From a virus (taxonomy: Duplodnaviria; Heunggongvirae; Uroviricota; Caudoviricetes): a DNA stretch of 25,462 nucleotides. Below, in pieces: positions 15,001 through 18,000 of the stretch; within the stretch, counting starts at the first letter, position 1, and each line of letters opens with the position of its first letter. The stretch lies in the IMG/VR virus record IMGVR_UViG_2563366903_000022, one strand, 5' to 3'. A program made the position numbers.

Positions 15001-18000
15001 TCCTGAAACTGGTACAGGATAATCCAGACAAGGATTACTGGCAGGTATTCACCAATGAGCGACCGGACACCATGCGTGCGATTGCAGAGCGTGTTGTTCC
15101 GGAAACCGGTGAAACCCGTCACGAAGTTGTCGAACGTCCTGTGCCGATGGCAATGATGGCGGATCGCTACTTCACCACCAAAAAGAACGGCAAAACGTAC
15201 TACATCAAACTCCATGATCCGCGCCTGATGCGTGCGATGAAGAATATGGGACCGGAAACCAGTAACGCCGTAATCCGCACGCTGGGGAAAGTTAACCGCT
15301 TCCTGGCAACGGTGAACACGTCGTATAACCCGGAATTCCTGGTCAGTAACTTCATCCGTGACGTGCAGACGGCGGTGATGAACCTGAAGGCGGAGCAGGG
15401 AAGGAGCGACGGTAAACTGAAAGGGCTGGATAACTTATCCGCCCTGGCTGTGGTGAAAGACAGCCGGTCTGCCATGTCTGCCGTATACGCCAGTCTGCGT
15501 GGTAAAACCCTCACGGGCAACGGTGCGCAGTGGCAGAAGGTGTGGAAAGAGTTTGTTGAGGACGGAGGTAAAACCGGCTGGTTTAACATGGGTGACCTTG
15601 AAGGCCAGCAGAAGGAAATGGATCGCCTTGTATCGCTGGCGAAGGGAGGATGGAAAGGCCAGAGTATCGGTGCATGGCATTCGTTCCTGAACCTGGTCGA
15701 GGATGCCAACGGCGCGGTTGAAAACGCTCTGCGTCTTTCTGCCTATAAACACGCCCGTGATGCCGGTTTGTCACGCCAGCAGGCGGCATCTCTTGCCAAA
15801 AACATGACGGTGAACTTTAACCGTCGTGGTGAGCAGGGAGCGCTGATGAACTCGCTGTATATGTTTGCCAACGCCAGCATTCAGGGGACCGCAAACCTGG
15901 TGAGAACGCTCGGACATCTTAATGGCGACGGGCCGTTACCGGAGCGCCTTCGCTGGAAGAATCTCAATGTACCGCAGAAAATCGCGCTTGCAGCTGTGGG
16001 AGCGGGTTATCTGCTTGGCTCGCTTAACCGCAGTGTTGCGGGGGAGGATGATGACGGGGTTAACTGGTATGACAAGGTGCCGTCTCATGTGAAAGAGCGT
16101 AACCTCGTCATTATGAAATCGGTGTTCGGGGGCAAGGCCGGAGAGTACTGGAGTATTCCTCTGCCTTACGGGTACAACGTTTTCTTCCTGCTCGGGCATA
16201 CTGCTGAAGGTGTGGCAGCGGGCGACCTGACTGCTTCACGTGCTGCCGGTAATGTTGTCGGTGGTATCCTGGGGGCATTCAGTCCTGTGGGCAGTGAAAC
16301 GTCGGAAACACTGTCCGGGGCATTGCTGAAAAATGCAGCGCCGACCATTCTGCGTCCGTTTGCGAACCTTGCCATGAATGAAAACTTCATGGGGGCGCAG
16401 ATTTACCAGGAGAACATGCCATTTGGCACACCGAAACCGGACAGCCAGCGGGGCAGACGTTCAACGCCTGAGGCGTACAAGGCGTTTGCATCCTGGCTGA
16501 ATGCGTTCTCAGGTGGCAGCCAGTATCGTCCCGGCGCGGTGGATATCACACCGGAATCGCTGAAATTCTGGATTGACTATATCTCCGGAGGGACAGGGCG
16601 CTTCATTTCCAAAACCACAGATGCGGCGGTGAAATCGCTGAACGGTATTGATATACCGGAGCAGCAGGTGCCCTTCCTGGGGAAAATTTCGGGTGAGGTG
16701 ATGCCGTATGCTGACCAGCAGAAGATGTATGACCGGATGACGGAGGTTGCGCAGTACCACGCAGAGCTGAAGAGTCTGACCGGTGCAGAAAGAACGGCAT
16801 TCATTGACGAGAACAACGGAAAATTGTCGATGAACGGGCTTATGCAGGATACCCGGAAGAGACTGAAGGATTTGCGTAAACAACGTGATGCCATTTACGC
16901 CGACAGTACTCTCAGTCTGGCGCAACAGTCGGCGATGGTGAAATCGGTAGAGCGGGATATGAAAATTGCCGTGGATCGGTTTAACCGCGAGTACAACAAA
17001 AAAGTGGGAGTGGATTAACAGAAATGGCCCCGTACGGAAGTGCGGGGCTGATTAAGAAATAAACACACATTAACCTGTAATAACCGGAGCTATTAACATA
17101 TAGTCAGAAAGAGTATTTCATGTGAGACAGAGAGCCGATTTATGTTTAATGAAGAAAAAGTTGCGTAAATGGCAGCGTATTTGCTGAAAAAACATGGCGG
17201 ATCTATGCGTTTCATTAAGCTGATGTATCTCTCTGACCGCAAAGTAATGGAGTTGTATGGTTTTCCCATTAGTGGTGATCATTATTTCTCTACATGGATA
17301 TCTGATGTAGCGGATCATAAGGTTGAAATGTGGCGTACATTTTCTTCTGTTGATGAGCTGGGGGAGTTATCGCCCGCAGAAATAGAGTCAATGGACATAA
17401 TTTTTGGTCAATATGGAGGTTGGGATGCGTTCAGGCTTTGTGATGAAACTCACAGAATTTGCGGTGAGTGGCGCGATCCGCATGGTTCATCAATTCCAAT
17501 CAGCCTTAAGGATATATTTATTGCTCTTGGAAAGTCGCCAGAAGCAGCAACAGTAATGGCGAATAGCATTTATGCGCAAAATAATCTTGATATATTATTA
17601 GGTGATCTGAGGTAGTCGGGATGATGTTCAGCCCTTATTTGTATTTACCGGGGAGGGAAGATGTTTAATTCCGATTCCCCGGCTCCACAGGCCTAACCTA
17701 ACTTTATGTAACAGTCCATGCAGGGCTGAAATCTGCCTGCTGAAATAACTCCGTTAGCCCGCTAATCTGCTTTAACCTCAGAACTTCATCCTGGTCCATC
17801 CCCAGTTCTGTTCCGATACGTTCATCAGTCCAGCCAAGACGTGAAAGATCTCTGACAATATCAGACATTGAGGTTATCTGGTGTTTCCCCCTGGCTCTGT
17901 TATGTCGGATAGTCGCGGCAATACGTGAGGTTTGTCCCTTTCGGTCTGGATTAATACAGGTTACTGGTAGCCAGCCTTTCAGGCGTTTTCCAGTAACTGT

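Follow-up and report, generated by a model that had tools for sequence, protein, structure and literature searches.

The question raised by this locus is why a Panacea/DUF4065-type gene should be preceded by a short open reading frame (ORF) that shares its frame and ends directly against its start codon. The gene, here named panA, was found in a 25,462-nucleotide (nt) stretch of viral DNA (record IMGVR_UViG_2563366903_000022, Caudoviricetes), hereafter the window, which is the right arm of a 933W-like (Sepvirinae, Shiga toxin (Stx)-type) Escherichia coli prophage. Reading of the sequence bore out the layout described in the original prediction, with an ATG at 17142-17144 that opens the frame and encodes MFNEEKVA (TTT AAT GAA GAA AAA GTT GCG after the ATG), a TAA at 17166-17168 and an ATG at 17169-17171 in the same frame. 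With a probability of roughly 0.85, we attribute this layout to the decay of an orphan antitoxin gene, that is, to a panA pseudogene that has been eroding since its toxin gene, panT, was lost.

Codon 9 and the native start of panA

The assignment of the gene to the Panacea/DUF4065 family stands, as the window ORF matched Pfam SocA_Panacea (PF13274) at 38.6 bits (E 2.4e-9), above the Pfam gathering threshold of 25.7 bits. The allele that carries the TAA and a full-length body scored 70.7 bits and the intact E. coli orthologue (P0209) 79.4 bits. This orthologue is 186 amino acids (aa) long, with CAA at codon 9, the motif KLMKLM and a full body.

The check proposed with the original prediction was whether codon 9 is normally sense, and it proved to be so. 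CAA (Gln) was present in 933W, 75/02 Stx and cM8a, in the intact orthologue (P0209, at locus L128) and in 26 IMG/VR copies. A search with the reconstructed full-length PanA protein as query yielded a family of proteins approximately 184-186 aa long, which cover 99-100% of the query, N-terminus included, and share the consensus start MFxEEKVAQMAAYLLxKRGG, so that the upstream MFNEEKVA, held in the original prediction to extend the conserved N-terminal helix, matches the family's true N-terminus. Among 80 species-representative GTDB loci from Enterobacterales, Pseudomonas, Aeromonas-like gammaproteobacteria, Acidobacteriota, Verrucomicrobiota, Cyanobacteria and Bacteroidota, none had a stop among the N-terminal codons, and residue 9 was usually Gln. 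Orthologues that begin at the equivalent of ATG 17169 with unrelated sequence upstream were looked for, and the opposite was found. As codon 9 is sense in the orthologues, the TAA is a C-to-T nonsense mutation, which was one of the two options originally proposed; the other, a leader peptide, does not hold for the short ORF.

The same TAA was identified in phage PhiR5_2, E. coli G1/2, E. coli EC2 and several IMG/VR contigs, and the exact 148-aa product is recorded from 59 E. coli contigs. The window panA is 98% identical to the PhiR5_2 and E. coli alleles, gap aside. The TAA/ATG arrangement is shared by other records and therefore inherited, rather than being due to chance or sequencing error. 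A GAGAG motif that may serve as the ribosome-binding site lies ahead of the native ATG (Table 1).

Separately, gene callers were often seen to start members of the PanA subfamily at Met10 or Met22 although the upstream nine codons are intact (for example L008 5001-5534, L009 3943-4476 and the Pseudomonas loci L071/L072), and the start of Pseudomonas moraviensis PanA was likewise miscalled, its N-terminus being restored by Kurata et al. (PMC8832971). Independent codon-9 stops were considered for an E. coli and a Salmonella protein called from Met10 (P0004 and P0010) and rejected, since the DNA shows an intact CAA; the upstream MFNEEKIAQ and MFCEEKVAQ are intact in these genes, so the called Met10 starts are annotation errors. 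The gene downstream of panA is also often uncalled, as in Yersinia (L013-L015), E. coli (L008) and Mixta (L010).

The lost partner and the damaged antitoxin

The original prediction also remarked on the lack of an adjacent toxin partner, and the window holds none, as no co-directional gene follows panA and the next gene, ibrB, is on the minus strand. Elsewhere, the partner is regular. A gene for a protein of approximately 134 aa stood directly 3' of the Panacea gene in 10/10 of the first loci examined (an E. coli P2-like prophage, a Salmonella lambdoid prophage, Mixta, Yersinia and Aeromonas), even where it was uncalled, and either overlapped the Panacea gene or started a few bases after it. 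A hidden Markov model (HMM) of this partner picked up the gene directly after panA, on the same strand, in 76 of the 80 GTDB loci; of the four loci without a match, three are cut short by a contig edge. Pairing of the PanAT kind is therefore a property of the family: of 77 informative species-level loci, 76 show it, as does the intact E. coli orthologue.

The partner protein matched no family in Pfam, NCBIfam or PADLOC, and in PHROGs it matched only families without an assigned function, phrog_19071 and phrog_1925, the latter probably representing relics of the L0135 type described below. Its predicted fold is the SH3-like barrel of the MazF/Kid/CcdB superfamily, at 8-14% identity to solved MazF or Kid structures. 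The partner differs from the MazF, Kid (PemK) and CcdB toxins in having no detectable sequence similarity to them (no Pfam or NCBIfam match), in carrying extra C-terminal helices and in being paired with a Panacea antitoxin rather than with MazE, Kis or CcdA.

The intact module was recovered from a few draft 933W-like prophages, at exactly the site occupied in the window. On four draft contigs (L128-L131) the giant LPD5 gene is followed by the intact panA and, 5 nt later, by a 133-aa partner. The window shares with this module its position after the giant gene, approximately 95-97% nucleotide identity, the 5' region and the start of the partner, whereas L128 differs in having CAA, two KLM repeats, the 78 bp discussed below, a full partner and DUF551/Ea22-type genes in place of ibrBA. 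In alignment to the window, the L128 partner begins MMFTPYRRGTILAPSG, and the window tracks L128 through the panA stop, the 5-nt spacer and partner codons 1-6, after which comes the end of the ibrBA cassette. As homology stops after partner codon 6, the toxin gene has been deleted or replaced and a stub left behind. No other trace of the partner was detected in the window by tblastn. By the two-gene definition of Kurata et al. (2022), the window has no PanAT module, only a six-codon stub.

The replacement DNA opens with an inverted repeat, CCGGGGA...TCCCCGG, which may act as a terminator or as a recombination joint. Partner codons 7-9 (CGCCGGGGA) share CCGGGGA with this repeat, which hints at microhomology-mediated joining. 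A similar hairpin was observed at the equivalent boundary in L128 (about 6030-6080) and just after the panA fragment of 75/02 Stx (L003). More generally, an inverted repeat of the form CCGGGGA/CCGGGAA...TCCCCGG ends the leftward accessory cassette in different phages, at panA/panT breakpoints.

The kind of system is already known. In P. moraviensis the PanT toxin is toxic and inhibits translation, and is neutralised by PanA, with which it forms a complex (Kurata et al. 2022, PNAS, PMC8832971); it is predicted to be MazF/PemK-like (PMC8832971). The subfamily N-terminus, (M)IFSEQKVAQMAAY, the length of approximately 185 aa and the stand-alone Panacea domain are shared with that system. Pseudomonas panA copies start (V)IFSEQKVAQ, identical to the N-terminus of P. 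moraviensis PanA as restored by Kurata et al., and have the same partner family directly downstream (partner HMM E about 1e-41 to 5e-45); the 90%-identity clusters of Pseudomonas PanA and of the partner include P. moraviensis proteins. Given the match in N-terminus and cluster, the window gene belongs to the experimentally validated PanA-PanT(MazF-fold) subfamily. It differs from P. moraviensis in having no toxin gene beyond six codons, in a panA with a nonsense codon and two in-frame deletions, in its approximately 42% identity to the Pseudomonas copies and in its location in a Stx-type prophage rather than a Pseudomonas chromosome. SocA-SocB of Caulobacter, the namesake of PF13274, has the Panacea domain in common with the window gene, but its toxin is unrelated, and SocA is a ClpXP adaptor for SocB degradation (as cited in PMC8832971).

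Both in-frame deletions fall in the body of panA. The window holds a single copy of the 9-bp repeat AAGCTGATG, where the family consensus is KLMKLL, and is three residues short in the central helix alpha2. This repeat occurs in one, two or three tandem copies among Stx-type copies (including L007, L018 and L128) and is a slippage polymorphism within a conserved PanA helix. The second deletion removes 78 bp that are present in PhiR5_2 and in all 18 complete E. coli genomes holding most of the region. The nearly invariant residues G54, P55, L57, S58 and W75 fall within the deleted stretch, and the GPV motif (MNKGPVLSQ...), present in every intact homologue aligned, is absent from the window product. 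The Panacea fold consists of helices alpha1-alpha7 and a small beta-sheet (PMC10440598, PMC8832971), and GPV, in beta2, is the domain signature and is needed for neutralisation (Kurata et al., PMC8832971); the double substitution G62A V64S abolishes neutralisation by Vibrio harveyi PanA (PMC8832971).

The lesions were mapped onto an AlphaFold2 (AF2) model of a homologue (P0007; mean predicted local distance difference test score, pLDDT, 88.4), whose elements are H4-17, H24-42, E51-54, E57-60, H61-68 and a remainder that includes H76-80. On this model the stop codon takes off half of helix alpha1 (H4-17), the KLM loss takes three residues out of H24-42, and the 78-bp deletion removes the GPV strand E57-60, helix H61-68 (alpha3) and part of H76-80. 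The window product thus lacks residues 1-9, three residues of H24-42 and P0007 residues 54-78, and does not retain a complete compact Panacea fold. With half of alpha1, one turn of alpha2, the GPV strand and alpha3 gone, the 148-aa fragment is most likely non-functional. A PanA-family profile search of PDB sequences returned nothing meaningful (best E 0.96, a DNA polymerase), and a Foldseek comparison of the PanA model with the PDB gave no match at E <= 0.001, the best being a DarTG chain (E 0.09, template modelling (TM) score 0.45).

A premature stop together with loss of the conserved core, relative to intact orthologues, marks the window panA as a pseudogene, and its relatives tell a similar story. 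A search of 5,426 complete E. coli genomes and 50,697 phage records turned up no intact two-gene module, taken as at least 80% of the module covered at one place; all 176 complete E. coli genomes with any match to the module carry relics. Among the Stx-type copies in IMG/VR and the phage records, every copy with CAA is a short remnant and every copy with a long body has the TAA. The 78-bp deletion was also seen with CAA, on 13 further contigs; two such alleles in the protein clusters (P0191 and P0198) lie beside ibrBA without a partner. The partner-less haplotypes are therefore TAA/full-length, TAA/deleted and CAA/deleted, all of them damaged, and only partner-bearing copies are intact. The ibrB-ibrA pair always accompanies partner-less alleles. 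Five point differences separate six TAA alleles, and all are non-synonymous and none synonymous, which points to relaxed constraint, although the count is too small for a firm ratio of non-synonymous to synonymous substitution (dN/dS). RefSeq labels the sister alleles 'Panacea domain-containing protein'.

Heavier damage was also observed. Of the 19 complete genomes in which the panA body is mostly or wholly preserved, two have an insertion sequence (IS) at the locus: in E. coli JNEC-KY204 an IS1 lies inside the eight-codon stub (L136 1565-2331, target duplication GAAAAAGTTG), and in S1-CAM-02-A an IS3-family element (L006 2721-3934) has taken the place of the giant gene's end and of the 5' part of panA. 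In 933W and many relatives, both genes survive only as internally deleted fragments. The N-terminal 28 codons of 933W panA are joined out of frame to its 3' end, giving an unannotated fragment (MFNEEKVAQMAAYLLKKHGGSMRFIKLKQQR, then a stop) just upstream of L0135. L0135 itself (L002, 3802-3990) is a PanT relic without residues 12-86, which also occurs in VT2-Sakai, Min27 and the PA-series phages. The L0134-L0136 interval of 933W and VT2-Sakai thus shares its locus and decay process with the window, but 933W keeps CAA and has lost nearly the whole panA body, whereas the window keeps most of the body, with a stop codon and without PanT.

Decay weighed against a retained function

Under the favoured explanation, the window gene is a relic of the intact module, which consists of a stand-alone Panacea antitoxin of approximately 186 aa starting MFNEEKVAQ, followed 5 nt downstream by a panT of approximately 133 aa with a MazF/Kid-like fold. 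By analogy with P. moraviensis, PanT would inhibit translation and PanA would neutralise it by direct binding. In the lineage of the window, the toxin gene was cut off after codon 6, at the point that the leftward ibrB-ibrA cassette now adjoins. With no toxin left to restrain, panA would then have gathered the CAA-to-TAA change at codon 9, the KLM loss and the 78-bp deletion that took the GPV strand. Ribosomes ending at the UAA could reinitiate at the adjacent AUG and produce the 148-aa fragment.

Several points weigh against this explanation. Reinitiation is favoured where an AUG directly follows a UAA, so that some protein may be made. Past Met10 the frame is open, over 148 codons in the window and 174 in the sister alleles, and open-frame alleles are common in E. 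coli (59 and at least 119 contigs), although the lineage is young (>=99% identity) and an open frame therefore says little either way. Three damaged haplotypes need recombination or recurrent mutation, and because TAA/full, TAA/deleted and CAA/deleted alleles coexist, the order of the lesions is not simply deducible and any order of the decay events is tentative. That the TAA preceded the 78-bp deletion was first assumed, and was dropped once alleles combining CAA with the deletion were found. The toxicity of E. coli PanT and its neutralisation by E. coli PanA are presumed from the P. moraviensis relative and the predicted fold. The link to P. moraviensis is made by species name, 90%-identity cluster and N-terminal decapeptide, the accessions of the published paper not being among the cluster members listed.

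A functional orphan antitoxin is the first alternative to be weighed, and we regard it as unlikely. A PanA made by reinitiation would neutralise a MazF-fold PanT encoded elsewhere, for example in E. coli P2-like prophages, and so protect the phage from exclusion based on toxin-antitoxin (TA) systems. A PanA-PanT module 69% identical does reside in an E. coli P2-like prophage, and phage antitoxins against host toxins are known, such as T4 Dmd (as cited in PMC8832971), but the same source reports PanAs to be specific for their cognate toxins. The adjacent stop and start codons, the frame that stays open and the spread of partner-less alleles in E. coli also fit this alternative, but AUG 17169 is not preceded by a good Shine-Dalgarno sequence, all five sister-allele substitutions are non-synonymous, and other copies have been struck by IS1, IS3 and larger deletions. 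Most directly, the window allele is three residues short in alpha2 and lacks both alpha3 and the GPV strand, and GPV was needed for neutralisation in the one PanA tested (PMC8832971). With that strand lost, the orphan anti-defence factor entertained in the original prediction has little chance of applying to the window allele. A related idea, to which we give a slightly lower standing, is that partner-less shortened PanA alleles are kept as decoy antitoxins against the PanT of competing prophages or host defence and are made by UAA-AUG reinitiation; if so, the stop codon would set a low expression level rather than being a sign of decay.

A regulatory leader peptide or upstream ORF controlling the Panacea ORF is very improbable. 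The layout, in which a short ORF ends at the start codon of a longer one, is what suggests it, but these eight codons are the conserved family N-terminus, which every homologue outside this lineage carries in frame with the rest of the gene; no orthologue was found with a separate short ORF, and elsewhere the nine codons form part of one continuous gene. The RNA around the TAA/ATG junction showed no excess of structure over shuffled sequence (z = -0.18) and gave no match in Rfam, and a promoter and terminator scan of 16900-17800 returned no sigma-70 consensus promoter and a single terminator-like match (17160-17176), which overlaps the junction and is at chance level (0.7 expected).

Equally hard to sustain is the suggestion, raised in the original prediction, that the Panacea protein neutralises or regulates the 2,790-aa giant LPD5 protein. 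In Stx-type phages the two genes are neighbours and run in the same direction, but a terminator-like hairpin lies between them, and 933W-type phages keep the giant gene with only fragments of panA. The invariable partner of the family is the small downstream MazF-fold gene, as the 76 of 77 informative loci show. The module occurs next to P2 replication/portal genes, lambdoid Q/lysis genes or tail genes, in many unrelated prophages that have no giant ORF there, so the adjacency seen with Stx-type phages is incidental.

A sequencing or assembly artefact behind the stop codon or the deletion can be set aside as extremely improbable, because the TAA recurs in many independent assemblies, the exact product recurs on the contigs noted above, identity in 17 of the 18 complete E. 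coli genomes holding most of the region leaves no room for a mismatch at codon 9, and the deletion recurs with CAA on the 13 further contigs.

Neighbourhood of the locus and significance

The features of the locus and the neighbouring genes are collected in Table 1. The ibrB-ibrA pair stands where other Stx-type phages have DUF551/Ea22-type genes, and IbrA gave weak PADLOC matches to BrxP (E 1.6e-7) and DndC (E 4.5e-5). Orthologues of the giant protein carry LPD5/LPD1/MuF_C/LPD38 domains (polyvalent protein), and the giant gene is frameshifted in E. coli G1/2. The region 21044-25462 may belong to a second prophage that adjoins the first; in E. coli S1-CAM-02-A the corresponding prophage arm ends beside ynfF.

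Table 1. Coordinates of panA, the panT stub and neighbouring features in the window
Feature	Position	Strand	Remarks
Native panA start, first eight codons (MFNEEKVA) and nonsense TAA	17142-17168	+	Ancestral codon 9 CAA (Gln); C-to-T at 17166
Residual ORF from Met10, damaged PanA body	17169-17615	+	148 aa plus stop TAG 17613-17615
Whole panA, probable pseudogene	17142-17615	+	
Shine-Dalgarno-like GAGAG	17130-17134	+	7 nt 5' of ATG 17142; position kept in all Stx-type copies
Single 9-bp repeat (Lys-Leu-Met)	17217-17225	+	Two in intact orthologue (KLMKLM)
Junction of 78-bp in-frame deletion	17292/17293	+	From alignments; 26 residues MNKGPVLSQTYSLVKDGSENEYSPWE gone, Ser to Thr at junction
panT stub MMFSPY (ATG ATG TTC AGC CCT TAT; ATGATGTTCAGCCCTTAT)	17621-17638	+	Six codons; starts 5 nt after panA stop
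End of homology to intact module	17638/17639		Stub frame closes at TAA 17666-17668
Inverted repeat CCGGGGA...TCCCCGG	17648-17682		Start of replacement DNA, which is the end of the leftward ibrBA cassette
GC-rich hairpin GCCCCG...CGGGGC	17027-17048		Between giant gene and panA; terminator-like for giant gene
Tail-tip and Lom genes			In window
Giant LPD5 ORF	8646-17018	+	2,790 aa; only co-directional neighbour of Panacea ORF
ibrB	17704-18348	-	Next gene after Panacea ORF; ParB-N-like protein
ibrA	18333-19559	-	PAPS-reductase/DUF3440 protein
antA antirepressor		-	After ibrA
Large serine recombinase	21044-22687	+	After antA
Dit-like tail gene	22684-23493	-	After serine recombinase; more unassigned ORFs follow, to 25462

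In summary, the puzzling ORF layout is explained by the decay of an antitoxin gene that was orphaned when its toxin was lost; this is ordinary gene decay, not a new regulatory or anti-defence device, and it opens no new mechanism. The intact ancestor at this site, the 933W-type small ORFs as PanAT relics and the decay series appear to be undescribed, no literature search having been made for these. Unannotated or labelled 'hypothetical', the small ORFs that follow the giant gene in 933W-type Stx phages, L0135 included, are relics of a PanA-PanT(MazF-fold) module, and the miscalled starts and uncalled partners amount to a systematic annotation weakness for this module. These alleles form a natural series, from the intact pair, through loss of the toxin with variously damaged antitoxins, to fragments of both genes, and this series could exemplify the erosion of TA modules in the accessory regions of prophages.

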